Source of the DNA: Antedon mediterranea | Taxonomy: Eukaryota; Animalia; Echinodermata | Reading direction: 5' to 3' | Length of the DNA: 64,000 nucleotides | NCBI RefSeq assembly: GCF_964355755.1 | Contig: NC_092672.1 | Span: forward strand, 32,680,437 to 32,744,436 | In this document: in pieces, positions 133 through 45,852 of the stretch | Position numbering within the stretch: position 1 is the first letter of the stretch | Layout: each line of letters begins with the position of its first letter | Position numbers and translations under genes: made by a program | Notes under the pieces: generated by a model | Seen by the model: the letters and a program-made list of their open reading frames with translations, nothing else | Database searches by the model: none | What the model was told of the DNA's origin: nothing

Positions 133-1731
133 TTACAGCAAAATACATGGGCATGTGGTGGAACGGTGTTGAGATTCTGTTCTTTGACTTCTTTGTGATT
201 CTGCTCTTTGGTGACTTCGATCTTCTTGACTCTGATCTGAATCTGAATCTAGATAACATGTCACATAATGGTTAGGTAATTGTCTTTGCTCTTGCAGTTG
301 TTGTATTTGAGCTTGCAGTTGTTGTTGGCTTTGAGCTTGCAGTTGTTGTTGTCTTTGCGCTTGCAGTTGTTGTTGTCTTTGCGCTTGCAGTTGTTGTTGT
401 CTTTGTTTTTGCAGTTGTTGTTGTCTTTGAGCTTGCATTTGTTGTTGTCTTTGAGCTTGCAGCTGTTGTTGTCTTTGAGCTTGCAATTGTTGTTGTCTTT
501 GAGCTTGCAGTTGTTGTTGTCTTTGAGCTTGCAATTGTTGTTGTCTTTGAGCTTGCAGTTGTTGTTGTCTTTGAGCTTGTAGTTTTTGTTGTCTTTGCGA
601 TTGCAGTTTTTCTCTCTGTGCTTGTAACTGTTGTTGTCTTTGCGCTTTCAATCTGGTTTCTCTTTGCGCTTCATAGTTTGTTGAAGCAATCGGTACACTA
701 TCATAGAATCGACCACTGTTTTCTGTTATTGTAACAACATGATGGTCAGATGTTTGCCTTCTAGATTTTGATATCGATGACTCATGTCCATGTCCTGTAT
801 AGTTTAAATTTCTCGCATCACTGCGTGATGAATAGTTTGCAGTAGGCATCTGTCCAATCTTTCGCCATAACATACATTTTATTCGTAGATTACGCTGTGA
901 ACTGAAGTCAAACAATTGGGACAACTCTTTTATCTGCCAAGATTGTTCTGCCATGGGCAGCTGATACGGATTATCCTCACCTCGATCAATAGTAGCAACC
1001 TCAACAAAGTTTGCCTGCCTAGCAACAGAACTAAAAAACTCTGTATTACCACCTTTTGAATTTTCCAAATAGAATAAGTAGGCACCTGATTTAGCATGGC
1101 TTAGTAAATCTTTAAGTGTATGTCGTGCATTTCGTAGTACTCGTATAGCTGATATAAACTTGCTACATGTGATCAGATCTGCTTTGGCTATGGCTTTAAG
1201 ATGTTCAGATGCAACACGTCTACTAATGGCTTCAAAATGAAGATAATCAGCTGATAACTGTGGTTGCTGATCTAGGCTTGCTAGTAAGCATTCAAAAGCA
1301 ACATCCCAGCTGGAATGTCTATCAAGAACAGTCGCAGTAATCCGAATATCTTCATAACCTCTACTGTTGAGAAACATCCTGACACCAAACAAGTCTGTAC
1401 CGGGTCCTCCGCCCAAAGCGCAGATATTAAGACAGCCGCGGATTGAAACTCTTTCTAATAGCATGTTTAAATGCATGTCAACGTAGAATTGCTGTAGACT
1501 GTCGAAGATACCATAGCATAAGGCGGGAAAATAGAGAAACACATAACAGGCTTGGTACGCAGGATCGTCAAAATCTACATCTCCGTCACCTTGATAAAGC
1601 GATGAGGGTTTATAACAGTCGACAAGTTCCTGCATGCATTCGGTCAGTTCGTCATGCCTGTCGGTGTACAGTAATATTCTATGGACCCCTTGCTTCATGA
1701 GAAGCAGAACAGGTTGTCCAAATCTTTCCAT
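133..1731 (-). CDS. Single-exon class I SAM-dependent methyltransferase-like protein (paralogue 1), Gln-rich repeat linker, C-terminal CaaX (CPCILL)
   Basis: 532-aa ORF; glycine-rich motif I LNICALGGGPGTDL, acidic residue in TVLDR, ADLITCSKFISA strand; strong similarity to ORFs 12884-14845 and 17728-18942; ends TCPCILL*. Confidence 0.85.
   Translation of the reverse strand: MERFGQPVLLLMKQGVHRILLYTDRHDELTECMQELVDCYKPSSLYQGDGDVDFDDPAYQACYVFLYFPALCYGIFDSLQQFYVDMHLNMLLERVSIRGCLNICALGGGPGTDLFGVRMFLNSRGYEDIRITATVLDRHSSWDVAFECLLASLDQQPQLSADYLHFEAISRRVASEHLKAIAKADLITCSKFISAIRVLRNARHTLKDLLSHAKSGAYLFYLENSKGGNTEFFSSVARQANFVEVATIDRGEDNPYQLPMAEQSWQIKELSQLFDFSSQRNLRIKCMLWRKIGQMPTANYSSRSDARNLNYTGHGHESSISKSRRQTSDHHVVTITENSGRFYDSVPIASTNYEAQRETRLKAQRQQQLQAQREKLQSQRQQKLQAQRQQQLQAQRQQQLQAQRQQQLQAQRQQQLQAQRQQQLQAQRQQQMQAQRQQQLQKQRQQQLQAQRQQQLQAQRQQQLQAQSQQQLQAQIQQLQEQRQLPNHYVTCYLDSDSDQSQEDRSHQRAESQRSQRTESQHRSTTCPCILL
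285..650 (-). repeat. Coding 24-bp tandem repeat (QAQRQQQL)n, about 14-15 units
   Basis: Repeated ttgagcttgcagttgttgttgtct on the + strand, inside the 133-1731 ORF. Confidence 0.95.
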
Positions 1732-10430: not shown

Positions 10431-10454
10431 TTATGGATCCTGGTCGAGCACTGC

Positions 10455-12883: not shown

Positions 12884-14845
12884 TTAATCATTTAGTTTAA
12901 TTTTAGGTTGCTTCTGAGCGCGAACAATATAACATTTTGTATCAATATTTTTCATATCTTGAATAGCCTTCGATGCAGCGTCATGGTTTTCAAAGCTTAC
13001 AAAACCGAAGCCTCTGCTTTTTGAATTTTCATCACGCATCACTTTCGCACTGACGATTTTTCCATATTTACTAAACTTTTCAACCAGTTGATCATCTGTA
13101 ATATCAAGGTTCAAGTTCTTGACATAAACGTTTATGTAACTCTTCATTTTATCAACCTTCTCGGCAGCTCTGGCTTTACGACGAATCATATGACTTAGAT
13201 ATACTTGTTTTCCATTGTGCAACATGCCGTTGACTTTACTTATAGCCTTTGAGGCAGCATCTTCACTCTTAAATTGGATAAACCCATAGCCTTTAGACTC
13301 ATTGTTTTCATCACATAGAATCTTACAAGACAAAATTTTACCAAACACTGAAAATGCGTCATACAGAGCTTTGTTATCAATTGCCTTGTCCAGATTTGCA
13401 ATAAAGACGTCTCTCATCATGCCAGGTAAACTTGAATTACGTTTGGACCCCATGATATCTTTGCTATTACCAGTTGACGTGGTTACATGATGCGTTGTTT
13501 TGCGAGGAATCCAACCGAGATATACTTCTTTTCCATTGTGCAACATGCCATTGACTTTACGTATAGCCTTTGAGGCAGCCTCTTCTTTCTCAAATTGGAT
13601 AAACCCATAGCTATTAGACTCATTGTTTTCATCACACTGAATCTTACAAGATAACATGTTACCAAACTCTGAAAATATATCATTCAGAGCTTTGTTATCA
13701 ATTGCCTTGTCTAAGTTGTCAAAGTAGATATATCCTGTGTGGATAGAATTTCTCCAATCTCTAGGAGGATGTGATAGTGTAGGTGATGTGACCACATTTG
13801 TCTTCTGAGGAATGTTCTGGGTTTGGTTAGGTGGTATTATTTGTTTTGCACCCAGCAAATTGCGTGAATAATATAAAGCAGGATATATCGGACTTGTATA
13901 GCTGAAATGTCTCCCTTCACTGGATGGTGAAACAGCAGGTATTTGACCAGTCTTTCGCCATAACATACATTTTACTCGTAGATTACGCTGTGATCGAAAG
14001 TTAAAATGTTGGGACATGTCATTTATATACCAGGATTTTTCTGTTTTGGGTAACCGGTATGAATGTTCTTCATCTCGATCAATGCTGTAAACCTCAATAA
14101 ATTGTGCCTGTCGAGCAACAGAACTAAAAAAATCCGTATTACCTCCTTTTGAATTTTCCAAATACAAAATAAAGGCACCTGGTTTAGCTTGGTTTAGAAG
14201 TCTTCGTAGTGTCTGTTGTGAATTCGGTAGTGCCTTTATAGCCGATATAAACTTACTACATGTAATCAGATCTGCACTAGCTATGGCTTTTACATGATCA
14301 TGTGAAATATATCCTCTAATACCGACTTCAAAATGAAGATAGTCAACTGATACGCTTGATTTTCCACTTAGACTTGATAATAAACAATTAAATGCAATTT
14401 TCCAATTGAGATGTCGATCCAAAACCGTCGCACGAATCATTACTTCTGTATAACCGTTACTGTTGAGAAACATCTTAACACCAAACAAGTCCGTTCCCGG
14501 GCCTCCACCCAAAGCGCAGACATTTAGACAGCCACGACGTGAAATAATGTCCAATAGAGTGTTTAAATGACCGTGATCAAAACATTGTTGTAGACTGTCG
14601 GAAATACCATAACATAATACGGGAAAATATAGAAACACATAACAGGCTTGGTACGCAGGATCGTCAAAATCTACATCTCCGCCACCATCTTTCAGCGATG
14701 AGCCTTTATAAGCGTTACACAGTTGTTCAATGCAATTAGCCAGTTTATCACGACCTTTGTTGGAATACTTTAAAATTTCATGTACTCCATACTTTATAAG
14801 AATCAGAACAGGTTTGCCTAGAGGCCAAGTCTGGTAATTATCCAT
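12884..14845 (-). CDS. Single-exon methyltransferase-like protein (paralogue 2) fused to three PABP-like RRM domains
   Basis: 653-aa ORF; N-terminal LNVCALGGGPGTDL domain; two copies of NLDKAIDNKAL...FG.ILSCKI.CDENNES.GYGFIQF (PABPC RRM2-like), then NVYVKNL...SRGFGFVSFENHDAA (RRM3-like); no CaaX. Confidence 0.9.
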   Translation of the reverse strand: MDNYQTWPLGKPVLILIKYGVHEILKYSNKGRDKLANCIEQLCNAYKGSSLKDGGGDVDFDDPAYQACYVFLYFPVLCYGISDSLQQCFDHGHLNTLLDIISRRGCLNVCALGGGPGTDLFGVKMFLNSNGYTEVMIRATVLDRHLNWKIAFNCLLSSLSGKSSVSVDYLHFEVGIRGYISHDHVKAIASADLITCSKFISAIKALPNSQQTLRRLLNQAKPGAFILYLENSKGGNTDFFSSVARQAQFIEVYSIDRDEEHSYRLPKTEKSWYINDMSQHFNFRSQRNLRVKCMLWRKTGQIPAVSPSSEGRHFSYTSPIYPALYYSRNLLGAKQIIPPNQTQNIPQKTNVVTSPTLSHPPRDWRNSIHTGYIYFDNLDKAIDNKALNDIFSEFGNMLSCKIQCDENNESNSYGFIQFEKEEAASKAIRKVNGMLHNGKEVYLGWIPRKTTHHVTTSTGNSKDIMGSKRNSSLPGMMRDVFIANLDKAIDNKALYDAFSVFGKILSCKILCDENNESKGYGFIQFKSEDAASKAISKVNGMLHNGKQVYLSHMIRRKARAAEKVDKMKSYINVYVKNLNLDITDDQLVEKFSKYGKIVSAKVMRDENSKSRGFGFVSFENHDAASKAIQDMKNIDTKCYIVRAQKQPKIKLND

Positions 14846-17727: not shown

Positions 17728-18942
17728 TTACAGCAAAATACATGGGCATGTTGTTGCGGAACGCGACTGTTGAACTTCTGTTCTTCGCCGCTGTCGTGAT
17801 TCTGCTTCTTGGCGACCTCGCTCTTCTGGACGTTGGTTTCTTTGAGTTTCTGGATAACCTGTAATATACTCGTTAGATAATTGTCTATGTGCTTGCAGTT
17901 GTTGTTGTCTTAACGCTTCTAATCTGGCTTTTCTTTGAGCTTGATAGTTTGCTGAAGGAATTGTAATGGCATGATGGTCAGATGTTTGCCTTGCTGAATC
18001 ATGTCCAAATCTTGTATAGCTTCTCCCATCACTGCATGGTGAAACAGCGGGTATCTGACCAGTCTTTCGCCATAACATACATTTTACTCGTAGGTTACGC
18101 TGTGAACTGAAATTAAACAATTGGGACAACTCTTTTATCTGCCAAGATTGTTCTGCCCTGGGCAGCTGATACGGATTCTCCTCACCTCGATCAATGGTAG
18201 CAACCTCAACAAAGTTTGCCTGCCTAGCAACAGAACTAAAAAACTCTGTGTTTCCACCTTTTGAATTTTCCAAATAGAATATGTAGGCACCTGGTTTAGC
18301 ATGGCTTAGTAATTCTTTGAGTGCATGTCGTGAATTTGGTAGTGCCTTTATAGCAGATATAAACTTACTACATGTGATCAGATCTGCCTTAGCTATGGCT
18401 TTAAGATTTTCAGATGCAACATGTCTACTACTGGCTTCAAAATGAAGATAACCAGCTGATAATTGTGGTTGCTGATCTAGGCTTGCTAATAAGCATTCAA
18501 AAGCAACATCCCAGCTGGAATGTCTATCAAGAACAGTCGCAGTAATTTGAATATCTTTACAACCTCTACTGTTGAGAAACATCCTGACACCAAACAAGTC
18601 TGTTCCGGGTCCTCCACCCAAAGCGCAGACATTAAGACAGCGACGAAGGGAAACTCTTTCTAATAGCATGTTTAAATGCATGTCAAAGTAGAATTGTTGT
18701 AGACTGTCGAAGATACCATAGCATAAGGCGGGAAAATAGAGAAACACATAACAGGCTTGGTACGCAGGATCGTCAAAATCTACATCTCCGTCACCTTGAT
18801 AAAGCGATGAGGGTTTATAACAGTTGACAAGTTCCTGCATGCATTCGGCCATGGCCAGTTCGTCATGCCTGTCGGTGTACAGAAATATTCTATGGACCCC
18901 TTGCTTCATGAGAAGCAGAACAGGTTGTCCAAATCCTTCCAT
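17728..18942 (-). CDS. Single-exon methyltransferase-like protein (paralogue 3), C-terminal CaaX (CPCILL)
   Basis: 404-aa ORF closely similar to 133-1731 but without the Gln-repeat expansion; flanks are also homologous. Confidence 0.85.
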   Translation of the reverse strand: MEGFGQPVLLLMKQGVHRIFLYTDRHDELAMAECMQELVNCYKPSSLYQGDGDVDFDDPAYQACYVFLYFPALCYGIFDSLQQFYFDMHLNMLLERVSLRRCLNVCALGGGPGTDLFGVRMFLNSRGCKDIQITATVLDRHSSWDVAFECLLASLDQQPQLSAGYLHFEASSRHVASENLKAIAKADLITCSKFISAIKALPNSRHALKELLSHAKPGAYIFYLENSKGGNTEFFSSVARQANFVEVATIDRGEENPYQLPRAEQSWQIKELSQLFNFSSQRNLRVKCMLWRKTGQIPAVSPCSDGRSYTRFGHDSARQTSDHHAITIPSANYQAQRKARLEALRQQQLQAHRQLSNEYITGYPETQRNQRPEERGRQEAESRQRRRTEVQQSRSATTCPCILL

Positions 18943-19079
18943 CTGATGTGCCGCTCTCTGGTGAAAATGTTAATATAATTATTCTGTTCAAGCTCTAGAA
19001 ATAACAGTCAAATACCGTTTGATATATCCCGTATAGATCAGGTGATCTGAGTTTAAACATATTCAGCCTATCGCGAGAA

Positions 19080-19370
19080 CGTAAAATTTCCACTGACGTA
19101 ATATTTAGCTATTGCTACCTGTTAAGTCTAGATATAAAACCTCAGAGTCAGACCAGATTGTGGAATTTTCACATCAAGTAGCTGCAGGGCTTACAGGCCT
19201 ATCGTATATGAGAATAGTAGGCCTAGTCCGAACAACATGAACAATTTTTTGCTGCACGATGTGAGAAATTGGAATTTCCACTGAAGTAATTATCTTAAGA
19301 GTGAAATATTTTGTTATAGTAGCTATAAAATACATTTATTTACAGAACTCGAAACTGGAATTTCCATTTT
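19080..19370. promoter_or_regulatory. Cluster of NF-kB-like sites and a CRE-like motif upstream of methyltransferase paralogue 3
   Basis: TGGAATTTCC at 19270-19279 and 19356-19365; near matches at ~19083 (next to tgacgt) and 19161. Confidence 0.5.
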
Positions 19371-20587: not shown

Positions 20588-20608
20588 GGAAATTCCCTTG
20601 TTACGTCA
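20588..20608 (-). promoter_or_regulatory. Consensus NF-kB site (GGGAATTTCC on minus strand) with adjacent CRE-like ttacgtca, upstream of the putative non-coding first exon of the ZAP-like gene
   Basis: ggaaattccc at 20588-20597; ttacgtca at 20601-20608; candidate donor aag/gtaggt at 20780/20781. Confidence 0.55.
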
Positions 20609-21469: not shown

Positions 21470-24400
21470 ATGGAAGACAACAGAAAAAGACAACGTTATC
21501 GTGGCAGTCGTGGGCGGGGTGGTAAAAAAAATAAACAAAAATGTTTAACAAGCAAATCGAACGTAATAGAGAAAGCTTTGAAGACAGTCTGCGAAAATGG
21601 TGGTAGTATTTCTTTTGAAGATCTTGAAGCGAAAGTTGGAAAGATTTCACCTGATCTAGAAAGTTTTGAATACATGATATCACATCTTGATCATGAGTAT
21701 TACCATTTTACCTTGGTAGACCATGAAGATGGTAGTACTGATGTTCAAGTGTTCACTCAAGTTAAGATCTGCCCGTCCTACCAAAAGAATGGCGAATGCA
21801 GGAAAGGTGATACTTGCTCAGATTTACACCTGTGTGGTTACTTTGCTACAGGTACGGTTTATAATTGGCAGCCATTGTATTGCTAATTTTGTTTTTCAAT
21901 TTTTTATGTTATAAAAGTATAAAATTCATTTTTGTATCTTAATGCAACTTGTCTATATTTAGTGGGCCTCCTATCAAAAACTGTTTGTATTGGAGTTTCT
22001 TGAAGGTCCCTTTCATCTAAATTAAATTAATTACTCTTAATTTGTACTTTTTTATTTCTTTCATTAAAGGTTCTTTCTGCAAGTTTAAGATAAACTGTAG
22101 ACAAACTCATCATTATCGATCAGATCACAACAAGCAGGTGTTAAGGAATTTCAAAATTGCCTTCTTGTCCCAGGGACTGGCAAGTGTGCTATTTCGATGG
22201 TCCTGGCCACAGTTTACTGTTCCCGATTTCTGTGGGAAATACCGCAGCAAGACCGGTTGTGGCAAGCATAATTGCAGATTTCTACACATTTGCAAGTAAG
22301 AAACAATCTGTAAAACCACCCCGCAATTTGATTTGGGGTATGTTATGCACCATGTGCCCGCTGCGTAGTTTGCACTGTTACATACCAAAATTTACTATAT
22401 TCTTTACAAAATGGAAGAACCATCAACATTTTAGTGAGAATGCTATGGATTTTACCAAAAAAAAAAGATAATTAATTCAGCAATACCTGTATATGCATTG
22501 CTTTTACAAAATGTATACATTTATACGGCTTTACCACGTTGAAACACTGTCTTTAAACTCCCTTTGTGTTCATTATGTGCATTTCAGAAATCATGTTATG
22601 GAAACTTGCAAATTTGGCGCACGGTGTAAGTTTGCCCATGATATTTACCACGATAGATTTAATACTCAATTACTAAAGCAGTTTGGGATTAGACTTGGCA
22701 GCAGTTCTGATGATATAATCCGCCTTATTAAGGAGCGCCATGAAGGATTCTATCGTCCTGATGTTGAGGTGCTTCAGGGTGAATGTGAAAAAACTGAGAG
22801 TGAATACAGTTTTGGGGAACGCAGCTGTGAGGAAGAAAGCCAATACAGCCAAGAAGACGGCAGCGATGACGATAGAGAAAGCATTGTATCTAGTTCTACT
22901 AATGAATTATATCAGGGAGCAGGTATGTTAAGTATACTATCATTTTACCAACAAAACAGCTAATTGGAGAGAAAAAGTGCAGATGATCAAATAATCATAC
23001 AAAGATATCTCCCAAGTTTCCGATAATTACAAATGATTCCCAACATTTTGAGAGATTTCTTGTCATTTCCCACCAAATTCTCCTAATTGTTTTGGTACAA
23101 AAAAGACATCCTGAAATGCATAAATTTATCATTTAGGCTCTACTAATATAAAAATGCATTGCCATCACAATGCATGTCATCATAATAATGCCAAGCTTGA
23201 AGTGCCTGCTTACTGTAGATGCTGATGCTAGATATTTTTAAAATAGCGCCATCTATTGGTGGTTGTATTTTGCTTTTAAAATATATCGTCCTCTATGGTA
23301 ATATAATATATCCCGTTTTAAAATTTTTCTTTCTTTTAAACAAAATGATATACACACCGGCAGCAAAATTTAAATATTGTTTTATTTTAATTTTTTTAAT
23401 TTTATGTATTTAAGCACATGTGGCCAACTGGGTGCACCGTGTACACTGGACCTACGTTTTTTTTATAGTCCTATTCATGAAGACTTGTTCCACCACCAGA
23501 ACTCGGAGCAGTTTGGCCGTGAACACATGTCGATATTGTTGGCTCTTTAGGTACAGTAAACAGCGCCCCTACCTTAACTGCTCAGCCATTTGACTCACTT
23601 ATACCAATAGATATTATTATTATTAAAATTTAATTTTATTTCTAATTAGCTTCCAACGCTAGACAAAGGTACAGACATCGCCATCGTGGTCGCCGCCGTA
23701 ATTATAATCGAAGAAAGAAAGAAGAAAGTCTCACAAGTAAATCTTCTGTCGCTGAGAGATCACTGCAAGTAGTCTGTCAAAATGGTGGTAGTATTTCAGC
23801 GCAAGATCTTAAAGAGAAAGTTGGAAAGATTTCACCCGATCTAGGAAGTTTGGAAAACATCATATCAGACCTTGATCATGAGAATTACCATTTTAAGTTC
23901 ATAGACTATGAAGATGGTAATGTTGATGTTGAAGTGTACACTCAAGTTAATATCTGTCAAACATATCAAAAGAATGAATGCACCGATGACTGCACTGATT
24001 TACACCTGTGTGGCTACTTTGCTACAGGTATGGTAGTCTGTATTAACCCACCTAAACATGTTCCTCACCCCAAAACATGTTTTACATTAATGCAAAATCA
24101 GAAGTGCTTCTATGCAGAAGAGGTAAAGCCCAATCTAGTTCCCTCCAGACTTTAATATAGTTTGTTTTACTGGAGGAAGACCACGAAACCCCTGTTCCTC
24201 TCACATGCAATTCTAAAGTTTGTGTAACTTTTGAAACTTGACACAGAAAGTATATTACTCTAACCATTTGGTATTTTTCAATATATACAGTACATAAAGT
24301 ATGTAATATTCAAGATCACTCTCAGTGCAGAGAGGTATAACAATATTTTTAGTCGCGTGGAAGCGACTCTATAGTTCACTATGTCGGTCGGTCTGTCGGT

Positions 24401-27400
24401 CTGTCTGTCGGTCCGGTATCACTATACGTTTTATCGCTTTCTGACCTTATCTTGATATCAGTTTAATCTAGCTAAGTCAATTTTTCACAGTATATTCCTT
24501 ATGGCCAGGAATCGATGTGGTTATGTTTTCACGGTGTGCAATAAAAAATTACGCGGTCTACGCACGATTTAACAAAATCACGTTTGTAATCATATCTTCA
24601 CAACCATGAATCACAATTAAATAAAATTTGGTACTCATAAATTTCAGGGCATAAATCATCATATGGCAATACAATTACGTGCGTAGCGCATGTAACGCAT
24701 GCGTACGCGCGCTTAAAATTTTCAAAATTTATTTTCGATGAAATAAGAGTACGTTTCAGGCAATTTTAAGCGTTTACAAAATTGCCATGAGTACGCAGAT
24801 TTTTGCGCGCGCACTGCACGTTAAATGTTATTGCGCACTCTTTTTGCCCGATTTCTGTTTTCTTGACTTACTTTTCAACTCGAAATTACGTTATACGAGC
24901 ACGTCAAAAGTGACAGGCTACGCACGTGTAAATTAAAAAAATATGTAAAAACTGTTTTTAAACATTTCAACATTTTTAAACATGTTCAGTAATTTTGGTC
25001 AGTTGGTAGGTTGGTCGGTCGGTCGGTAAACACTAAGCAGGCGACTGCAGCCATCTATATGGCCTTGTTATTTTATACCTTCCTGCACAATATACCAGAT
25101 TTTGATCCCAGTATCATGGGAATATTCGGTAGTGTATAGCACCACATGTGTATCACATGTGATGCCTGTATCATGTTAGGGAAGGTATTGACTTAAGTTA
25201 TGGTTAGTGTCATTGTTTGTCATTTCTTTTTTTTTAAATTGTTTGTAATTTTATTCTTCTCATTAAAAGGCTCTTGCTGCTGGTTTGGACGGCAAAGCTG
25301 TAGAAAAAGTCATGATTTTCGATCGGATTACAACAACCAAGTTTTAAAAAACTTTGGCATTGCCTTTCTAATACATGACGAGTTGAAAACTTTGCTTCGA
25401 TGGAAATGTCCACAGTTTACAGTTCCAGAATTCTGTGGACAATACAGAAGAAACATGGGCTGTGGCAAAGAACGCTGCAGGTTTCTACATATATGCAGGT
25501 AAGAGTATTTCACAGTAAAATCCAGCACTGACCAATAGTTAAGTGATGATAACTAAACAAATAATATCATTTGAATGTGGTGAAGTATACTGGAGTTTTT
25601 AAGCTTTTTATTACTGAATTGTAGAAGCACGGCCTATTATGTTAGTAATATCTATGTATGACTTGATGATGGTAAACTGTATATCTAAGGAGTTATTCCA
25701 ACATTTCCCACAATTTGTAATGTTAATATGGTTGTATTTATATAGTAGATATTAGCTCTTTTAGCAGATTTTCCAAAAGTGATTGAAATAAAAGACAGAT
25801 TGAATGACAATGACAACACTTGGTTTCCTTTCTCATGATAATTAGAATCATGTAAGTTACAAAATAATAATTCTGCTTTTCAGAAATTTTGTGATGGAAA
25901 CTTGCAGCTATGGAAAAAGATGCAAGTTTGCCCATGACATCTATCAAATAGAGTCTAATAAGGAATTACTGTATAGGTTTCAAATTAGTCTTGCCTATAG
26001 CTCGGATGATGTCATCCGCTTGATCAAAGAGCGCCATCAGGAAATCTATCGACCTGATCTTGAGGTCTTGCAGAGTGATGGAGAAGATAATCAATGTAGT
26101 CAGGAAGAGTGCATTGATGAAGAAGAAAGTCCAGAAATCAGTCCACCTATCTCTCCTATATTAATTACTCATAGGGATTTCGTTTCTCAAGAGTACTCAA
26201 GAAGAGATACTTTTACTCATAAACCAGAACAAATGGTTAGACAAACAAGCTCAAAACACAATTTTGCTCCATTTAAATCAAACGTCCAAGATTTGCTTAA
26301 GAGTTCTGCAGTAGTGACATCAGCTAAACCATCAACACAATATGTTCCAAATAATGAGATACAACAGAAGTCACATCAAGTTCAACCTCTACCTAGTACC
26401 AAAGGAGAAAGGATTACACAACATGCACCATACCAGAAACAGGACAATTTCCAAGATATACCAAAGATGTCTTCGGTAATGACTGCAGTTAAACCATTGC
26501 AATATAACATTGCAACTAATCTGTTAGAAGAAAAGTCAGATATCCAGTCTGCATTCGTTTCTACAAGTCAAGTTCAACCACTATCTAGTAGTAGAAGCAA
26601 CGAAGAAAGAAACACATACACATACACATACAATCTAAGTCCAAAAAGTCCTTCATCAAACCTTAATTTCCAAGAAATGCCAACAAATTTGTCAGTTATG
26701 GCTGCAGCTAAACCATCAATATCACATATTGCAACTAATGTTTTAGAAATGAAGGTAGATTCTGCAAAGCAAGTTCAGTCACTACCTAGTAAAAAAAAAG
26801 AAATGGGTATTGCCAGATTCACAAAAAGTCCAATACAAGTGAAAATGAGAGAAATTTGCAAGGACAACCTGAAAGGAAACTGCAGTAGTGGCAGTATGTG
26901 TCAGAGAATGCATTGTGATCTTCCTTATCAATGGCAAATGTCCATTAATGATAGGTGGGTTGACTTTGATGATAGATCAAATCTGAAAGTGGAAGAAGGA
27001 TTTTCTGGAGAAATCACTGATTGTCCTCAGTTTCCTGTAAATACTACCATGTAAGTTTTGGACTCTTTATTGCTTAAGCCCTGTCTACACTTTATCAAAC
27101 TACTGTAGTTGACAAAAAAAGTGTGATGTACCCAAATATGGTTTTGATATGCCCAAATATTTTAGTGATATGACATCATCATGTCTCTGTGTAGACAGAG
27201 TTTTGGAAGTTTAAGTTAAGATTGTACTTTATGATAGTGTTGATGAAATTGAAGCACAAAATAAGCAGCTGGTATTGCAAAGAAAATTGTAGTTCAAGTT
27301 TTGTTTTTATATCTGCAAAATACATTCCATAACCAATTTATTGCTTGCTGACTACAATCACTAAGTTCATCCTGTTTATTCTACTTTAGTTATAAGAATT

Positions 27401-29794
27401 ATATGCAGTTGTATTTTTTGTATTAAAAAATCTGAATTTTGAAATGAATTAATGGCTATTACTCTTCTTCTTTTTAAAAAAGGGATGTGTGTTTTGATAG
27501 CATGCTTGCATCCGATGGGTTAGACCTCATTTCAGTTGAGCGACTGGAAGTCAAAGGTGATGAAGATGTTTCTGATGCCTATCTGGTATCTCCGTGGTCT
27601 TGGTATTGGCAGGATGAATGTGGAAAGTGGATTGAATACAGCGAACAGGTAGGCTTGTTTAAATATTTTATCTTCTCAACACTCCTCAACCAACAAAAAG
27701 AGAGCAGTAAGCAAGTAACTACAGTAAATAGTGCAGGGAAGAATAGTGCAGGAGCAGAGAAATATTGCTATTCATGCTCCAGCATACAGTACAGTATTTT
27801 GTATTATTAGAACATGATTAAAACAAGATTAATTTCCATTTTTAATTAGAATACCAAGCAGAGTGCACGATCAGACAAAGAAAGTTCAGATTTTGAAAGT
27901 TTGTTTAAAGCTTATAAAAATGAAAATGGAAGTTCCAGCGTTAAATTCAAGGCTGGCAATCAAAACTACACTTTGGACTTCTCTGCCATGAGCCAAACCA
28001 ATGATAGATACCATACCAAAAGACCTGTTTGTCGAAGACCAGTCAGACAGATAAAACCAAAGGATGTTGAGAAGTACAGAAAAGAAAAACCTTGGTAAAA
28101 AATAATAATTGTTAAATTATTCTTATTCGTATTTCTGAATTCAGAATTAATTATTTCTCCTAGATCATACGAAGGTATTTACTACCACATACTACTATGT
28201 TCCATTCTATAGCGGGTACTCTCCCTCATCACACACCAACCACCCCAGTAGTTTAAAATATTCCCAGTACAAATTCTGGTTATGTTGATCTAGTACTCTC
28301 AACCCCTAACCTTGTGTATGGAAGTTTGCAATAACAAACAAGTACTCAACCTGTAGCCCTAGTTTACTTTTACCAGGGAAGTTCATTTCACTCTTTCCTG
28401 CTGTTACCTTTTTTGTTATATTATATACTTAGGTTACACACTCATACTTTCCCAAGGACTTGGGATACAACCATCAAAACAAAAACACATTGTCTTGTAA
28501 GAGTGACTAAGGAAGCAAATAACGAAGAATACAAAGAAATATCCAAACTATTTAAAAGAACTCTTCCAGATGGAGCAATAACTCGACTTGAACGAGTCCA
28601 GAATGAGATCTGCTGGGAAGCATTTGCACGGTAAATTTTAAAATGATATGATAAATTGTTTACACTGTTTGACAGTAGTGATGTTATGGTATGAAAGATA
28701 CATACTAATTTATAATAGCAATGCTATAGTTAATGCACTTACTACTTTTCTTAATTTTTATTAAAAAGTTTTGGGCCATATTATAAGAGCTTATGACATG
28801 AAGGTTATGGAATTTTTAAATAAAGCCTAAAGAAGGCCTTTAGCCTCGAACCAGACCATTGGTTCCCCACTGCAGCCAAATGTTGATAGCTTCATTTGCC
28901 TGTCTACTTTAAATATTGTGTCTATTGACCCTGAACTCTTTTTTCATTGATTTTTTAACAATTTATTTTTGTCTCACAAGGCAAAGGGAAACCATGATGA
29001 AGAAAAACTCTCGTAGAAAAATTGAAGAGCTCCAACTGTTTCATGGAACAATGCAGGATAAAGTTGATGATATCTGTCGTGATAATTTTGACTTTCGCTT
29101 GAGTGGTACACGAGTTGGTCATGTTTATGGACAAGGAGCTTACTTCGCAAAGTCAGCAAAGTATTCCAATGATTACGCTGAAAAAGACAGTGCTGGTAGG
29201 AAGAGGATGTTTGTTGCAAGAATTCTTGTTGGTAGCTACACAGTTGGCACAAAAGAGATGCGCCGGCCACCGTTTAAAGACCCGGCAGATAAGTCAAAGG
29301 GGATGTATGACTCTTGTGTTGATGATGTAGCTAATCCAAGTATTTTTGTGGTGTTTGATAACCATCAGGTTTATCCAGAATATCTGATTACATATACCAT
29401 TTCATCGCCTAATACAACATTATCTAGAGCATCAAACATTCAACCATCTATTGCGACCTCCTACCCATCATCAAGAACTGCAGCAAGTGCCAGCCATTCA
29501 GGGTACAGTAACCCATATTCATCAAGCAGGTATAGCCCACCTACTGTCCGATCTTCAAGTTCAAACCAACCATCTTACACTAACAACCCATACTCAGCAA
29601 GCAGGTATAGCCCACCTACTGTCCGATCTTCAAGTTCAAACCAACCATCTTACACTAACAACCCATACTCAGCAAGCAGGTATAGCCCACCTACCATTCG
29701 ATCTTCAAGTTCAATCCAACCATCTTACAGTAGTCAAAGTAGTTTGCCAAGGAGGGACAGCAAAGCAGATAATAATAAATGTATTTGTATGTAA
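21470..29794 (+). CDS. PARP12: PARP12/ZAP(ZC3HAV1)-like protein, ~1379 aa: two modules of (N-terminal helical region + 4 CCCH), linker, CCCH, WWE-WWE, PARP (H-Y-I), Ser/Pro/Tyr repeats, CaaX (CICM). Exons 21470-21851, 22070-22295, 22588-22922, 23650-24027, 25270-25498, 25884-27050, 27483-27648, 27850-28094, 28433-28630, 28981-29794
   Basis: All introns GT-AG and phase-compatible; exons total 4140 nt; CCCH spacing; YQWQ...W and WYWQDECGKWIEY WWE motifs; LFHGT, YGQGAYFA, PSIFVVFD, YPEYLITY. Confidence 0.88.
23430..23600 (-). mobile_element. Diverged, truncated copy of the tRNA-derived SINE in intron 3
   Basis: gtgtacactggacctacg...tatagtcct...gaagact...caccagaac matches 6470-6530. Confidence 0.6.
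24346..25069 (+). mobile_element. Helentron-associated (HINE/DINE-1-like) non-autonomous element in intron 4
   Basis: Begins tttttagtcgcgtg; (gtcg/gtct)n microsatellite; subterminal inverted caggcgact; 3' hairpin gcc...ggccttgtt; absent from the paralogous introns. Confidence 0.7.
29510..29730 (+). repeat. Coding 75-bp tandem repeat x3 (NPYSASRYSPPTVRSSSSNQPSYTN)
   Basis: aacccata recurs at 29510, 29585 and 29660; same array at ~42842-43060. Confidence 0.9.
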
Positions 29795-31508
29795 TGAAAG
29801 TTGCTGCTAGCAGTTTCTCGTTTTATGATTGGGCACCATCTACAGTAAATAAGTGAAATTATGATAACCTCTGTACGACCTGATTGTAAAATCCTAAGAT
29901 AGCCCAAAGGCTACAGGGGAATTAAAAGGTTTAGGAGGAGATATAGTAACAAATATGGGGTTAGTGCTATTATAATATAGATATAATATAATATATAATT
30001 TAGATGTCTTCCAAAAACGTTTGGTTTGTATTCCTTTGTTGTGTATTTCTTTGTTTATTGTGGTTAATAGATTCAAAGTTGTGTAACTAAAATCTCCATT
30101 ATTGTCATCAACCCATCCACCACCAATCCTGATTTCTTCCCTGCATCCATAGCAACGGCAGGTGCAGACAAGGGTTAGTACCATCGCCATCACAGCTATT
30201 TTTATAAATTGTCAAAACAAAAGCATTTTTTATAGTGTCAGTTAAATACACTAACTAAATCAGGTTTTTTTTATTCATCTCTTTCAAGGGAGTATAAATA
30301 CAAACTTAAAATTAACAATCGATTAATATTGTTTAAGTGTATGATTGTAAACTTTAATATTATTTGTGTGCTTTACTATAAAGAATATATATATATATAT
30401 TATATCAATTTACTTTACAGTAGTTAAGTTAATTCAACATTTGGTAATTTCTATCAATAGTACAATAAACAAAATCGTAATATTACCATTAATAGATAAT
30501 CTTACAAGAAGAAATAACTTGTCACTCAAGACCCATAAACGAAAAATATTCACTTCAATATAAATATAATAAGGTCATAACAATAAAAATTTAAAGGTCT
30601 AATTTGAATACAATGATGACAGGTGATTTTAAGTGTGTTACGAAATGTTTAAAGAGAAGAAGAGTTATTTTATTGATTCCATATTAAAATAAATGGAAAT
30701 AAATTATTCTTATTCTTTATTGCCAATCAACAACAAATAAAACAAACAACTACAAAGTAAGAGGCAGGAAACACAAACAAGACAAGAGCCTGTGAATCCT
30801 CTTACCAAATATAAAAAAAAAACATTCATAAAAATACAAAAACAAGCAGAAAAGTAAAAACACTTTACTCATAGAAGAAATTCAAATCTGTCTCCTTACA
30901 AACAAACGGAATAGTTTACTGAAACTTATGACGGTACTTCTCTGATATGGATAAATTCATCATGGGAGATTGGTAATTCATAAAATAAGAGACTCGAAAA
31001 AGTAATATGTATTTCTAATATCACGCTTATTAATCAACTTATCTGATTTATCAATATGAGAAAATAGTCAGCAGCACAAGAAGAAAAAGATGAATTAATA
31101 CAGAACGTAAGGTGATTAATAATGAGTAGAGAAACCAACTTAATGACGTATGATGTAATTCTATCATGCCACTACCTATTTGGATCAAGACCATTTATAA
31201 TTATCATCATTTCATGAAGATATGATTTAGGATTAATTGAAGTCTGGCATAGAATTTTAAAGTGAAGTGCCAATTTTTGAAAAAAAAAAATTAAATTAAT
31301 GAAATGATTATAAATATCTTCTTCAGATGTATGGATAGTTTTGGCTTGACTTACATTGTATTAATCGATTCTGCCTACAAAATATATAAGTACGTTTAAA
31401 AGATCAATTTAATTTGATTTTGCTTAATTTTATTTTGCATCTCAAATAAGATTATTAGCCACTGTTTAGTATCCACATCATTATTTCGAAATTTGGCTTC
31501 AGATGTAA

Positions 31509-31667
31509 AGCTCTGTCTACACTATCAAATTTTATGTGACAAAAAATGTGATAGGCCTATATAGGGACATGATGATGTCATATCACTACCATATTTGTGC
31601 ATATCATTACCATATATGGGCACATCACACTTTTTGTCACATAAAGTTTGAGAGTGTAGACAGAGCT
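31509..31667. mobile_element. Short MITE (PIF/Harbinger/Tourist-like), TIR agctctgtctacact, TAA TSD
   Basis: taa-agctctgtctacactatcaaa...tttgagagtgtagacagagct-taa; contains 2-3 degenerate 21-bp units. Confidence 0.8.
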
Positions 31668-33005
31668 TAATTTATTTCTTTCAGAATGAAACAAATTAAA
31701 TTTCAAACTACAGCATATAATACTGTATAAATACAAGTTTCAACAAACAGTACATACATTATTTTATTATTTATTTATTTATGATCTGTAGAAATGTGGT
31801 AGTACAGTAGTGTTGTATGATTATACGAATGTATTAAACAATTGTTATTCTATAATAAATTAACATGAATATTACATTTGGATTGTTCTTTATGACAATT
31901 TGATTCTTTTTGTGGTGTAAAAGCTTTTTGAAAGTAACAAAGATATACTGTATGATCGGTGAACAACATGAGTCACAATAAAAACCAAACGCAATGATAC
32001 AGCTGTACCCACTAAACAAATAACATTCATTCAATGAAAATTGAAGATTCGACAATTGATCTTATTTTGTCATGTCGGGTTTTGAATATATTTTTGGTTA
32101 GTGTAGATCAAACAAATAAATAGTGAAATTCCTCTTCAGTATCATTTCTATTCCACAGTGTTTGGACTTTAAACTCAATTACACGCGACTTAAATTAGAC
32201 CTTTGGAACTACCAGACAAACCGTTCGGATCCAAAAATGTGGGCCTACACATTAACCCAACAAAATCTACCCAGAAAGGTCATATTTTATGCATCTTTTT
32301 CAACATTGGTCGACTTGATCCTTTATTACTTATTTTACTTATCTTGTGGTTAATCGGCGATGGTAAATTCTACTGAGGTAGGTTTTGGAAACAGCTTTCT
32401 CAAATTGTCCAGGGAAGCCGCACGCGGCCATTACAAATGGTAATGTAAATATATAGACCCGAAATCACTGAATAATACAAAGATAAATATTTTCCTATCC
32501 TAATATACCGATAATATAAATAATATGTAATTACCTGCCTGCCTGTCGGTCATTTCTTCTCCGTCGAGTAATAAAAATGTCATTGCCCGGTACGACCAAT
32601 GCCATCTAGTAGGGTTTTACCATATATAAAATCTTATCATCTACCTTAATGTTAAATTTAATTTATATTAACTATTTTCTACCAAAACCTGAACTATTGT
32701 TTTTTTGTCATAGAACCTTCAACAACAGGCTCAATCCAGCGCTCGGTATACGTGACGCAAACTTGTATATTTATGTATTCAAATCACTATTTGGCAGTTT
32801 GTTTCCTTACAAATTGCATAAAACAAACAATTAAATAACCAAAAAACATTAAACATGATTTTAGCATGTAATTTTAACATTTTACATTCTACATTATAAA
32901 CCATACCTGGCGTAGATTTGTATGCTAATAACTATCTGTATACATTCCAATTTTCAGAAATTTCAGAAGAAAATTATGAAATAAGTACTAAGTATTATTT
33001 TACAC

Positions 33006-35370
33006 ATGGCTGCATCAGGTACGATAGTTCTCCAATTTAAGATCTCAAATTTCACAAATCCTGAATTTCAGCATACATCCATTCAAAGAAATAACATATT
33101 AGTGAACTTATTAAAATATTTCAACAAATATTTATTTTGCCATTGTAAAATGTTCTTTTCTATTTAGTACTTCTATTTTAAAATTATTTATAAAAATATA
33201 TTATTTGTCTTAATTATATCAAACCGTTTATAACATTTAATCTGTTTTCGCTATATAGAAAGACTTGACTCATCTTTTAAACAAGGTTTAATAACTTTTT
33301 CAACTTGGTATGACGAACGTTCGTACATAACAAAACTAAAAGTGTTGTACCAAGGTAAAATTGCAGAAACGGATTTATACAATGCCTCAACGACGATGGA
33401 CTTGCTGAATCATTTATCTGATTCTGGGGATCACAGTTCAACAGATTACACTATTCTTTGTGATACAATAAAGGCCACTAAACAGTTTGGTATTATTGAA
33501 GAACTTCGAGTTCACATTCCATCTTTCCCGAATGTAAGAGAAGAAATCATTATTTCCAAGTTCAGTCATCATCAACAAAACATTATGAATTTAGGAAATG
33601 AACTAATACAGGAAGAAGTGAAAAAAATTGACATTATGTTCAATAAACCTCCAAAGAATCATAAAGATGGATGGAATCTCCTTTTGGATTTACAGCACAA
33701 ACAAATTATTTGTGAAGAAGAGAAAAAAATGGATACATTTATTAAGACCTTAGATAATCTTGGATTACCTCGCGCTGTAGCAACTCTTACTCAAGGTACA
33801 ATGTGATGAGTTTATTGGAACATGCTTACATTAAGCTCTGTCTACACTATCAAACTTATATCAAAAAAATGTGATGTGCCCATACAGTATAAATATGATG
33901 ATGTCATATCACTACCATATTTAAGCATATCACTACCATATTTTGGCATATCACTACCATATTTTGGCATATCACTACCATATTTAGGCATATCACTACC
34001 ATATTTAGGCATATCACTACCATATTTAGGCATATCACTACCATATTTAGGCATATCACTGCCATATTTAGGCATATCACTACCATATTTTGGCATATCA
34101 CTACCATATTTAGGCATATCACTACCATATTTAGGCATATCACTACCATATTTAGGCATATCACTACCATATTTAGGCATATCACTACCATATTTAGGCA
34201 TATCACTACCATATTTAGGCATATCACTACCATATTTAGGCATATCACTACCATATTTAGGCATATCACTACCATATTTAGGCATATCACTACCATATTT
34301 AGGCATATCACTACCATAGTTAAGCATATCCCTACCATATTTAGGCATATCACTACCATATTTAGGCATATCACTACCATATTTAGGCATATCACTACCA
34401 TATTTAGGCGTATCACACTTTTTTTGTCAAACTAGTTTGATAGTGTAAACAGAGCTTAAGAGAAAGTTATTTGAAAGCAATTTTTTTGCTTTCTACATAG
34501 TTTTAAAAATATTACTTAAATAATTTAAAACTTTCTATATATAATTTCAAACAATTGTAAATCATGTATGAAATTGGTTCTTATTAATCAGAAATCATCA
34601 AAATATTTTAAATATCATTACAGATGTTCCAATATCCGTTACTATGAAACGTAAGTCTGACCATGAAGACAATCAAGCTCTAAAGAGAACCTGTCTTCCC
34701 GCTGTATCTACACAAAGAAATCTTAATGGAAAACTAGAATGTTTTCAAAGCATTATTGATGAAATTCTGCGATCTTTACATACTCTATCTAAAATTAGGC
34801 CATCATCACTAAAAGATATTGATGACAATCTACATCTTTACCACCTAATCTTTCTGATAATACACCATCTGTACTCGCAACTATCCTTCAAAATCTGAAG
34901 TCTTTACAAAAAAACTATTAATGATAATCTACAAACATTACAATGTACTCTTAATATTGAAAATAGGCCTGTGGAAAGACGTATTTATAAAAAACTGCAA
35001 TCATTAAAAACCTTTCTTAAAAAAAGGAAACAATGTTTGTCAAATTTCACACCAACATTTTGTAAATACATAGGGGAACTAAACACTATGACACAAGATG
35101 ATGAGCAGAGATTATTTAGGACAGTACAACTCCTGATTTCTTTCTGCCAAAGATATGGATGTGAATTAAGCAAGCTGGAACGCAAATGTATAGTTTTTAC
35201 TTTTTCTGTACTGGACCCCATTGCTCTGGCTAATCTGTGGAATATGTGTCAAACGGGAGAGCTTCTTATAAAAGTGTCAAAGGAGCATCAGAAGACATTT
35301 CAAGTGGAATGGACAACAGAAATTGACAAAAACAAATATAAGGAAGCACTTTGTATGCTTGAACGAGAAG
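33006..35370 (+). pseudogene. 5' exons of the DED/TRADD-N-like gene (copy 1): 33006-33018, 33259-33795 (intact), 34624-~35370 (frameshifted, donor lost)
   Basis: Homologous to 58705-60458; -1 and +1 indels at ~34834 and ~34910 with a stop at 34898; donor G/GTGAG changed to G/GAAGA. Confidence 0.75.
33834..34456. mobile_element. MITE of the same family with an internally expanded 21-bp minisatellite (~24 units)
   Basis: TIRs agctctgtctacactatcaaact / agtttgatagtgtaaacagagct; unit catatcactaccatatttagg; empty site at ~59531. Confidence 0.9.
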
Positions 35371-35702
35371 GAAGAGAAAACTGTTCAATGCTTCAATCGA
35401 ATGAACAATTTTTTACAGGCATGTTATAATAAGGATTATTTTTAACCAAGTGATTTTTCAATGAACACATGTGTAGGCTATAAAGGTTCAGTCGAATATC
35501 GCATTAACCTAACAGCAATAACATTTACAAATAGTATAGATTCCAAATATATTAGAAAATCATCTTGATGTTGAGTGGTACACAGACTTAACAAGAATTA
35601 TGCTTTATACACATTTTTTTGGGATATTGCAATTTGAGCAATTATAAAATAAATTGGTCCGAGTATATTATGATTTTATTTTTTCTTTGTTACTCTATAG
35701 CA

Positions 35703-38700
35703 ATGACAGACAACAGAAAAAGACAACGTTATCGTGGTGGCCGTGGGCGGAGTGGTCAAACAAATAAACAAAATTGTTTAACAAGCAAATCGCATGTGAT
35801 AGAGAAAGCTTTGAAGACAGTCTGTGAAAATGGTGGTAGTATTTCTTTTGAAGATCTTGAAGTAAAAGTTGGAAAGATTTCACCTGATCTAGAAAGTTTT
35901 GAATACATGATATCACATCTTGATCATGAGTATTACCATTTTACCTTGATAGACCATGAAGATGGTAATACTGATGTTCAAGTGTTTACTCAAGTTAAGA
36001 TCTGCCCGTCCTACCAAAAAAAATGGTGAATGCAGGAAAAGTGATACTTGCACAGATTTACACCTGTGTGGTTACTTTGCTACAGGTACGGTTTATAATT
36101 GGCAGTCTATTGTTTTGTTATTATTTTTTTTAATTTGTTATTTAAAAATAAGTATGATAACAGTTTTAAAAAATGTGTTAACAAAGCAAAAATGTGGACA
36201 TTCAACGAAACTTCCCCAGTAATTGTGTATTCAAAACTATTAACTAATTAAAGGCCTATTAATATGATCTGTAATCAAAACTTTGAAGTTTGAGACTTTA
36301 AAAAATGCAAAACAACATGTCTAAACTGAACATTTCTGGTATTCTGTGGCAATGGGCCAGAACCACGTTCTTGGTAAGGAAAGAGCAACTAAATAAGTTA
36401 TTTTATTAAAGGTTCTTTCTGCTGGTTTGGAAGAACTTGTAGCAAAACTCATCATTACCGATCAGATCACAACAAGCAGGTGTTAAGAAACTTTAAAATT
36501 GCCTTCTTGCCCCAAGAACAGGCAAGTGTGCTATTTCGATGGGCCTGGCCACATTTTACTGTTCCAGATTTCTGTGGAAAATACCGCAGTAATACAGGTT
36601 GTGGCAAGCATAATTGCAGATTTCTACATCTTTGCAAGTAAGAATAACTGATTTTTATAAATTCTTTAAAAGCTGAAATAAAGAAACTTTAAACCATCCA
36701 GCGATTGCTTGGATTGTGCTTCTTGTCTGTCTGTGGGGCCAACTACATAGTGTTAGAACCTTAACACTAGGTTCTTTTACCGAAACAGATATTGACCAAT
36801 TTACAACAATTAAGTTGTACAGCAACTTTTCTCATGCCCTCTTTGCATTTCAGAAATCATGTTATGGAAACTTGCAAATTTGGAGCACGATGTAAGTTTG
36901 ACCATGAAATTTACCATGATGGATCTAACACCCAATTATTGAAGCATTTTGGAATTAGACTGGGTAACAGTTCTGATGATATAATCCGCCTGATTAAAGA
37001 GCGCCATGAAGGATTCTATTGTCCTGATGTTGAGGTGCTTCAGGGTGAATATGCAAAAACTGAGAGCGAATATAGTTTTGGGGAACGCAGCGGTGAGGAA
37101 GAAAGCCAATACAGTCCAGAAGAGGGCAGCGATGACGATAGAGAAAGCATTGTATCTAGTTCTACTTATGAGTTATATCAGAGAGCAGGTAAGTTAAGTA
37201 TACTCTAAATTTACAAACAAAACAGCTAATTTGAGAGAAAAAAATGATTAATGAAGTGCAGATAATCAAATAATCATACAAAGATATCTCCCTTGTTAAT
37301 TACAAATGATTCCCAAAATTTCGAGAGATTTCTTGTCATTTCCCACCAAATTCTCCTGATTGTTTTAGTACAAAAAGAACATCCTGAAATTCATAAATTT
37401 ATCATTTAGGCTCTACAAATAAAAAAAATGCGTTGCCATCACAATGTACGTCATCATATGTCATGCTTGGAGTGCCTGGCTTACTGTAGATGCTGATGCT
37501 AGAAATTTAAAATAGCACCATCTATTGGTAGTTGTATTTTTCTTTAAAATATTGCGTCCTCTATGGTAATATAAAAATCCTGTTTTTTGAATAGATAAAT
37601 CATTAAATTTTAATTTTATTTCTAATTAGCTTCCAACACTAGACAAAGGCACAGACATCGCCATCGCGGTCGTCGACGTGATTATAATCGAAGAAAAAAA
37701 GAAGAAAGTCTGACAAGTAAATCTTCTGTGGCTGAGAGATCACTGCAAGTAGTCTGTCAAAATGGTGGTAGTATTTCAGCGCAAGACCTTAAAGAGAAAG
37801 TTGGAAAGGTTTCACCCGATCTAGGAAGTTTGGAAAACATCATATCAGACCTCGATCATGAGAATTACCATTTTAAGTTCATAGACTATGAAGATGATAA
37901 TGTTGATGTTACAGTGTACACCCAAGTTAATATCTGTCAAACATATCAAAAGAATGAATGCACAGATGACTGCACAGATTTACACCTGTGTGGTTACTTT
38001 GCTACAGGTACGGTAGTCTGCTTTAAGTTGCTGTTGTTGCTAACGTTTTCCGTCTTCCGACATTACGCTTTCCACAATTTGTTTCCATTTTTTTCTGTTT
38101 ATGGCAGGATGGTTTGTTATTGTGTTAGTGTCTACTAGTCCTTGTAAGTCTTTCTTTATTTGATTCATCCAGTTATTTCTTGGTCTTCCTATGGGTAGTT
38201 TTACTTTCGATCCTGTTAGTTTCCTTCATTGTTTGTTTGATTGGTAGTCTGCTTTAACCCACCTATTAAATGCAGTATCAGAAGTACCCTCTATGTAGAG
38301 GGGTAAAACCCCATCTATAGCTTCAATAGAATTTTTCTGGAGAAAGACTCCAAAACCCTTGTTCTTCTCATCTGCAATCTGAAGTTTGTGTATCTTTGGA
38401 AACTTTACACAGAAAGTATTACTGAAATATTTTAATCCTTTGCTATTTCAATATAATACAGTAATACTCAAGGAGAGACCACTCAATTTTCAGAGCAATT
38501 TTTTTCCCAGTATCATATGAATATTCGGTAATACAGTATCTCATATGTATCATATGCCTGTATCATGTAAGGTTAGGTTAATGGTTAGGTTATATGGTCT
38601 ATAATATAAGGCAATACATGTGAAACATGATAATTATGAATGATAATTAATAATTATTTATTATTTAACTTTGTTGTAAATTGTTTGTTATTTTTGTAAA

Positions 38701-44872: not shown

Positions 44873-45231
44873 AGCTCTGTCTACACTATCAAATTTTATG
44901 TGACAAAAAATGTGATAGGCCTATATAGGGACATGATGATGTCATATCACTTCCATATTTGTGCATATCATTACCATATATGGGCACATCACACTTTTTG
45001 TCACATAAAGTTTGAGAGTGTAGACAGAGCTTAATTTATTTTCTTTCAGAATGAAACAAATTAAATTTTAAACTACAGCATATAATACTGTATATTATGT
45101 GACAAAAAATGTGATAGGCCTATATAGGGACATGATGATGTTATATCACTTCCATATTTGTGCATATCATTACCATATATGGGCACATCACACTTTTTGT
45201 CACATAAAGTTTGAGAGTGTAGACAGAGCTT
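44873..45231. mobile_element. Short MITE (44873-45031) plus a partial tandem duplicate (~45097-45231)
   Basis: Equivalent to 31509-31667; second partial copy found only in this duplicate. Confidence 0.8.
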
Positions 45232-45852
45232 AATTTATTTTCTTTCAGAATGTTTCAACAAACAGTACATACATTATTTTATTATTTATTTATGATCTGT
45301 AGAAATGTGGTAGTACAGTAGTGTTGTATGATTATACGAATGTATTAAACAATTTTTATTCTATAATAAATTAACATGAATATTACATTTGGATTGTTCT
45401 TTATGACAATTTGATTCTTTTTGTGGTGTAAAAGCTTTTTGAAAGTAACAAAGATATACTGTATGATCGGTGAACAACATGAGTCACAATAAAAACCAAA
45501 CGCAATGATACAGCTGTACCCACTAAACAAATAACATTCATTCAATGAAAATTGAAGATTCGACAATTGATCTTATTTTGTCATGTCGGGTTTTGAATAT
45601 ATTGTTGGTTAGTGTAGATCAAACAAATAAATAGTGAAATTCCTCTTCAGTATCATTTCTATTCCACAGTGTTTGGACTTTAAACTCAATTACACGCGAC
45701 TTAAATTAGACCTTTGGAACTACCAGACAAACCGTTCGGATCCAAAAATGTGGGCCTACACATTAACCCAACAAAATCTACCCAGAAAGGTCATATTTTA
45801 TGCATCTTTTTCAACATTGGTCGACTTGATCCTTTGTTACTTATTTTACTTA

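Follow-up and report, generated by a model that had tools for sequence, protein, structure and literature searches.

Methylation of the base-pairing face of a nucleotide blocks copying and translation. Among the enzymes that come closest to the family described here, METTL6 is a tRNA m3C32 methyltransferase, Bmt6 (YLR063W) is the 25S rRNA m3U2843 methyltransferase, and METTL17/Rsm22 carries a conserved Fe-S cysteine cluster, METTL17 reportedly working mostly as an assembly factor. Bmt6 is described as a Rossmann-fold, cytoplasmic N3-pyrimidine writer (PMC3950682), PF11312 is linked to EC 2.1.1.312, the U2843-N3 methyltransferase Bmt6 (PMC5307852), and m1A and m3C are removed by AlkB-type enzymes (PMC2553587, PMC4738411). 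A host methylation defence, not known to have been identified, was proposed by Van den Born et al. as the reason for viral AlkB domains. Two earlier mentions come closest to the present family: in the UG25 reverse transcriptase-methylase fusions, a predicted defence system, a methylase goes together with DUF1848 (Mestre et al., PMC9226505, and its preprint), and C3a159 is an accessory cluster of type III CRISPR (Shah et al., PMC6546367). The prenylated antiviral proteins ZAP-L and OAS1 p46 join an RNA-acting domain to a C-terminal CaaX box that directs them to membranes, a layout that some members of the present family would share; in ZAP-L the box is required for membrane targeting and antiviral activity, and human PARP12 lacks it (PMC8568172).

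The fold analysed here is known; what is new, within the literature searched, is the uncharacterised family itself, its pairing with AlkB and its expansion in animals. Within that literature, which takes in few subscription papers, no paper on the methyltransferase family or on such a methyltransferase-AlkB pair came up. Our overall reading, which we put forward tentatively and with somewhat less than even confidence, is that of an RNA base methylase, predicted to be targeted to membranes or poly(A), that would be used in immune defence.

Three paralogues of a predicted methyltransferase

The window, by which we mean the whole 64-kb stretch of DNA analysed, holds three minus-strand copies of the methyltransferase domain (Table 1). 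Translation of 17728-18942 is free of stops and yields the 404 residues of paralogue C, including DFDDPAYQACYVFLY and CALGGGPGTD, and thereby bears out the first-pass annotation, which had described an open reading frame with a domain of about 290 aa, these motifs, a variable linker and a CPCILL terminus. That annotation counted two paralogues; A and C do both end in CPCILL, but the third copy, B, with three RRMs and no CaaX, had been missed. Over the domain, A is 90% and B 67% identical to C, and dN/dS between the paralogue pairs lies at 0.38-0.52, a range indicating purifying but loose selection. None of the coding sequences contains an intron, which upholds the description as intronless for the coding part; upstream of it, the pyrimidine tract followed by CAG is a possible splice acceptor for an intron in the 5' UTR. 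A and C also have some 500 nt of upstream DNA in common, and this duplication of flanking DNA along with the gene fits tandem DNA duplication and not the retroposition that had been suggested for paralogue C.

Table 1 Features of the window, with strand and basis or content.
Feature	Position	Strand	Basis or content
Paralogue A	133..1731	-	532 aa; same domain, Q-rich QRQQQLQA repeats, CPCILL end
Fourth GGAATTTCC site	1997-2005		Upstream of paralogue A
Paralogue B	12884..14845	-	653 aa; same domain plus three PABP-type RRMs, without CaaX
Three PABP-type RRMs of paralogue B	about 12887-13762	-	Profile and sequence search
Paralogue C	17728..18942	-	404-aa ORF: methyltransferase domain, low-complexity linker, CaaX
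Predicted prenylation box CPCILL-stop with upstream Cys, paralogue C	17728..17748	-	Sequence; family recurrence
Predicted class I SAM methyltransferase domain, paralogue C aa 1-300	18043..18942	-	AF2, VIA-align, conservation
Domain residues, paralogue C			Motif I GGGPG 109-113, D139, W144, E169, K193, S196, E225-N226
Pyrimidine tract and CAG just 5' of ATG	18943..18976	-	Common to paralogues A and C
Two GGAATTTCC sites	19271..19365	.	330-420 nt upstream of paralogue C
Third GGAATTTCC site	20588-20596
PARP12/ZAP-like tandem array, about four genes	21470..63396	+	Winged helix, CCCH fingers, WWE, PARP

Predicted fold and links to characterised enzymes

The AlphaFold2 model of the domain, built with 128 aligned sequences, has a pLDDT of 94.7 and a pTM of 0.93. 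Its matches in both Foldseek and VIA-align are class I methyltransferases with the Rossmann-like seven-strand fold, in agreement with the fold assigned earlier. Among the Foldseek matches listed, the top query TM-scores (0.54-0.55) belong to chain 7 of human mitoribosome assembly intermediates, which in the 8cs* entries we take to be METTL17, and the best E-values belong to small-molecule enzymes. Among viral structures a Marseillevirus methyltransferase comes closest (TM 0.55). VIA-align, applied to the 1000 chains that Foldseek ranked highest and with 50 rows shown, places mitoribosome-assembly chains in its top eight rows, yeast METTL17/Rsm22 included, with Z of 16.9-19.0, 244-252 residues aligned, an rmsd of 3.6-4.7 and 10-11% identity. 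The METTL17/Rsm22 group (PDB 8csp, 8csr, 8om2, whose title names METTL17, 8d8l and 6sg9) is thus the best structural match over the whole domain, and the likeness noticed at first reading is borne out: the predicted fold is that of a class I SAM methyltransferase closest to METTL17/Rsm22.

Next in the ranking, at Z 14.6, comes a halide methyltransferase. Together with the Foldseek E-values it speaks for an enzyme that methylates small molecules, for example halides or a pigment, with nucleic acids being alkylated by its product or by leakage; the AlkB next to bacterial relatives would then serve as self-protection and would not erase a directly written mark. AlkB-repaired lesions do arise from methylating agents (PMC2553587). 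METTL17/Rsm22 nevertheless scores 2-4 Z units higher and covers more residues, biosynthetic genes do not recur among the bacterial neighbours, and the fusion of paralogue B to RRMs points toward RNA; we regard the small-molecule reading as improbable.

Sequence comparison links the family weakly to PF11312, which 99 of the 128 aligned members match at E<=0.01, many homologues exceeding the Pfam gathering cut-off of 26; paralogue C itself stays below it, at 19.8 bits. The Rsm22 family is absent from the 10 Pfam families that the 128 members match at that threshold. Against PDB sequences the family profile finds METTL6 as its sole match at E<0.001 (E 4e-4, 22 bits), and the two share an F-x-S-A motif after strand 4; the match spans only 65 residues, however, and METTL6 is missing from the 50 VIA-align rows listed. 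A search of the PDB with the single sequence gave one chance match, to dehydroquinate synthase, and nothing else, and PCNA matches of a small profile were rejected as the sum of three 9.6-bit pieces. The family is neither METTL17 nor Bmt6, the latter compared through the PF11312 profile. Its predicted Rossmann fold is shared with Bmt6, but reports of Bmt6 orthologues concern lower eukaryotes; unlike METTL17/Rsm22 it is multicopy, patchy and in some members CaaX-tailed. It has no conserved cysteine cluster, C106 being the only conserved Cys in the animal clade. As the first-pass annotation had implied, no known housekeeping orthologue was matched.

The residues expected of a SAM site are present: G109 and G111 are conserved at 99-100% and D139 at 95-98%, and position 169 is D, N or E. 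After strand 4 the two sides of the family differ, animals having Lys193 (94%) and mostly Ala197, bacteria Tyr (80%) and Glu (99%), and the crinoid branch is without a His that 71-88% of other members keep. The Lys/Ala swap and the loss of the His suggest that the chemistry may have changed in animals, and these active-site changes keep in play both the small-molecule reading and another, in which the animal domain has turned to methylating proteins or serves at membranes as a SAM-binding adaptor of little catalytic power. Lys193 and the lost Glu at 197 would suit such a protein, as would prenylation, which fits membrane protein substrates, and the precedent of METTL17 as largely an assembly factor. 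Animals have, on the other hand, kept motif I, D139, W144, S196, D/E225-N226 and Tyr42/Tyr65 as in bacteria, and paralogue B has acquired RNA-binding domains, and we consider a protein methyltransferase or adaptor a rather poor prospect.

Most bacterial relatives adjoin AlkB or DUF1848 genes

A scan of GTDB confirmed 96 places, of which the best 80 were analysed with a partner window of 700 nt. An AlkB-family gene is present in 32/80 and DUF1848 in 43/80, so that 75/80 have one or the other, none has both and five have neither. On a tree of 61 of the methyltransferases from these loci the partner switches between AlkB and DUF1848 at least five times. As the 80 loci contain related cyanobacteria, we drew 251 cyanobacterial genomes evenly and found the family in 14 of them, at 15 places (one of them the seed), with AlkB adjacent in all 15; this adjacency extends to a far-diverged subfamily matched at E 1e-12 to 1e-18. 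At two of the 15 places, both diverged (L122 and L124), AlkB and DUF1848 flank the methyltransferase together. At three cyanobacterial loci (L123, L126 and L127) the methyltransferase is truncated and the adjoining AlkB intact, a pattern expected if a toxin decays before its antidote. AlkB also adjoins the methyltransferase in both plasmid matches, and DUF1848 does so at 5/10 metagenome loci, the other five, on contigs of 1.1-2.7 kb, showing no partner.

The neighbouring AlkB proteins are closest to human ALKBH3 and ALKBH2 (E 9e-46), and the metal motif is intact in 29/29. Because AlkB is rare per genome (0 to 3 matches in five genomes checked, the neighbour being the sole AlkB in two), its adjacency is meaningful. 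The tie does not hold in the other direction for DUF1848: of 21 DUF1848 loci with 1.5-kb flanks, just two, the seed among them, have the methyltransferase family next to them. A CxxxCxxC motif is present in 37/38 DUF1848 proteins, but at the C-terminus, and the predicted fold gives weak TIM-barrel/radical-SAM matches (PFL activating enzyme, TM 0.39, E 3e-3); these matches do not establish a repair role for DUF1848, for which the AlkB pairing nevertheless suggests a possible function.

The bacterial distribution is patchy and mobile, with the family in 1/401 Pseudomonadota genomes (the seed), and combines with tight two-gene linkage as in toxin-antitoxin or anti-phage pairs. Genes recurring or appearing nearby include type I restriction, resolvases, DarTG, OLD nuclease and Mrr; at L003:7323-10686 the AlkB-methyltransferase pair is followed directly by DarT and a macrodomain. 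The patchy range and the restriction genes, resolvases, DarTG and OLD nuclease nearby are the grounds for reading these loci in terms of conflict. Of the two earlier mentions, C3a159 gave weak matches in 15/54 homologues scanned (best E 6e-8); unlike UG25 and C3a159, however, the family has no reverse transcriptase or CRISPR genes among its recurring bacterial neighbours. The Hma defence system (HmaB), a helicase-methylase-ATPase operon, was considered and rejected, as there was no Hma match in four window proteins or 54 homologues and the neighbours are AlkB/DUF1848.

Judged from this gene order, the bacterial relatives quite probably put methyl groups on the bases of nucleic acids, a mark that the adjacent ALKBH2/3-type protein or DUF1848 removes or counters. 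The two genes would form a toxin-antidote or defence pair, the partner shielding the cell's own nucleic acid. The protein of the window gene, a predicted SAM-dependent methyltransferase in the same structural clade as Bmt6 and METTL17, would likewise act on the Watson-Crick face of RNA bases (m3C, m3U or m1A); this is the simplest reading for a family whose closest characterised relatives are writers of m3U or m3C and which travels with AlkB. Should the immune reading fail, the pairing with AlkB would still provide a first testable substrate class for this uncharacterised family, several hundred clusters in size.

An old animal family with lineage-specific expansions

A profile search over 1.84 billion cluster representatives returned 775 proteins at E<=0.001. 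Among the best 150 of the 775, the closest relatives are from the crinoid Anneissia japonica (50-53% identity), and the 24 that could be named come from sea stars, a brittle star, sea cucumbers, spiders, a scorpion, Limulus and a centipede; plants are not among them, and no phage or viral-contig members were found. In a FastTree phylogeny of 222 rows, 102 animal-side rows, mostly assigned as such from tree position alone, are set apart from the bacterial ones. IQ-TREE on 60 chosen rows supports the animal group at 98/97 and, within it, an arthropod (97/86) and an echinoderm (96/93) branch, each with class-level subclades. Tandem expansions have occurred in animals repeatedly and separately by lineage. 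These topologies indicate that the animal family is old, with independent lineage expansions, and is no recent transfer or retrocopy. The recent horizontal origin raised at first reading is therefore not upheld, given the division of the animal clade into arthropod and echinoderm branches and a GC3 of paralogue C similar to that of neighbouring exons. The IQ-TREE phylogeny is unrooted; an ancient bacterial origin of the animal family is plausible. The animal proteins have, in our judgement, quite probably retained the bacterial base-methylating chemistry.

Exchanged C-terminal tails

Paralogue C ends in CILL-stop, a C-a-a-X box at its true C-terminus for which prenylation is predicted. Leu at position X favours GGTase-I, and a Cys just upstream of the box is often palmitoylated. 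The homologue from A. japonica, the second crinoid, ends in CQCCILL, and CaaX ends are found in 13/99 animal-side compared with 0/166 bacterial-side database proteins; the recurrence and the skew together place the box beyond chance and agree with its earlier description as a family feature. Three spider homologues end in CVIS, the same as ZAP-L, although the catalytic domains of ZAP-L and OAS1 p46 are unrelated and the comparison is an analogy only. Four further database proteins, one probably a truncated gene model, have a hydrophobic C-terminal stretch. In the echinoderm homologues P0006, P0016 and P0029 a hydrophobic helix stands at the end in place of CaaX and may provide a second route to membranes.

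The RRM block of paralogue B is nearest to poly(A)-binding protein (E 8e-74) and scores 295.9 bits against TIGR01628, under the cut-off of 497.1. Fused in frame to the paralogue, the block is likely a retrocopy-derived chimera. A search for longer fused forms among 7984 scored candidates gave two already known proteins only, which is weak evidence. The block is intron-free, and one of its RRMs is duplicated (13197-13390 and 13518-13711, 90% identical).

By analogy with the CaaX box of ZAP-L, the exchange of CaaX, membrane helix and PABP RRMs probably serves defence by bringing the methyltransferase to RNA that is bound to membranes or polyadenylated, the places where RNA viruses replicate and are translated; in paralogue C the predicted prenylated tail would hold the protein on membranes. 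The same tails can be read without immunity, as those of a regulatory writer of m3C or m3U on the animal's own tRNA, rRNA or mRNA, with AlkB as the bacterial eraser: Bmt6, METTL6 and METTL17/Rsm22 all act on or bind host RNA, and a PABP RRM fusion suits mRNA of any origin. A patchy bacterial range with plasmid and defence-island contexts is nevertheless unlike a housekeeping writer, as is the way in which animals have expanded the paralogues repeatedly and exchanged their tails rapidly, and we judge the host-writer reading unlikely, if a serious contender.

A PARP12/ZAP-like array beside paralogue C

Paralogue C lies head-to-head with the PARP12/ZAP-like array, 2.5 kb away, a linkage observed in the 64-kb window alone. 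The last exons of the array (28994, 42326, 56165 and 62059) end in KCICM (three) or ACILA (one), and genes of PARP12-like character with a CaaX box combine features of PARP12 and ZAP-L. The catalytic His and Tyr are retained. In the third PARP last exon (56096-56791, +) an in-frame stop at 56564-56566 precedes the CaaX tail. These CaaX-bearing neighbours and the bacterial AlkB/DUF1848 link are new relative to the first reading.

Upstream of the methyltransferases, GGAATTTCC, which by its consensus we take to be an NF-kB-like site, occurs four times in the window where 0.5 would be expected, always upstream of A or C. The enrichment is a lead only, as it was noticed before it was tested, two of the four sites are homologous to each other, and within the same upstream interval a further four 9-mers containing GC also have three occurrences each. 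IRF-type sites are not enriched.

The immune reading draws on the tandem expansions, dN/dS, the PABP RRMs, the CaaX-bearing PARP12-like array and the kB-like sites; counting against it are the lack of any PADLOC defence-model match among the window proteins, a CaaX in 13/99 only and weak links to characterised enzymes. On this reading the animal protein would act in innate immunity by damaging RNA of viral or other foreign origin. We offer as speculative and, taken whole, doubtful a fuller scenario: bilaterian animals would have taken over from bacteria a conflict enzyme that methylates nucleic acids, dropped its AlkB antidote and expanded the enzyme repeatedly as a restriction factor, directed to membranes or poly(A), that disables viral RNA with m1A, m3C or m3U lesions. 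If the immune reading is right, base methylation as damage would join cleavage, deamination and ADP-ribosylation among antiviral RNA weapons, and one more family would be added to the immune proteins common to bacteria and animals. It would also supply a concrete enzyme for the idea of Van den Born et al., though the viruses concerned infect plants, a group absent from the named relatives.

The rest of the window is partly repetitive. An inverted repeat pair of 1.7 kb (8279-9966 and 10452-12135, 97% identical), with a decayed open reading frame lacking a Pfam match, is probably a transposon relic. Tandem repeats of 21 bp at 33900-34416 and 47590-48500 create long open frames in several frames, and these two stretches were rejected as genes because their frames arise from the repeats. 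A 335-aa open reading frame without a Pfam match (59603-60649, +) has copies near 34461-35592 and 48547-49677, one per PARP unit.
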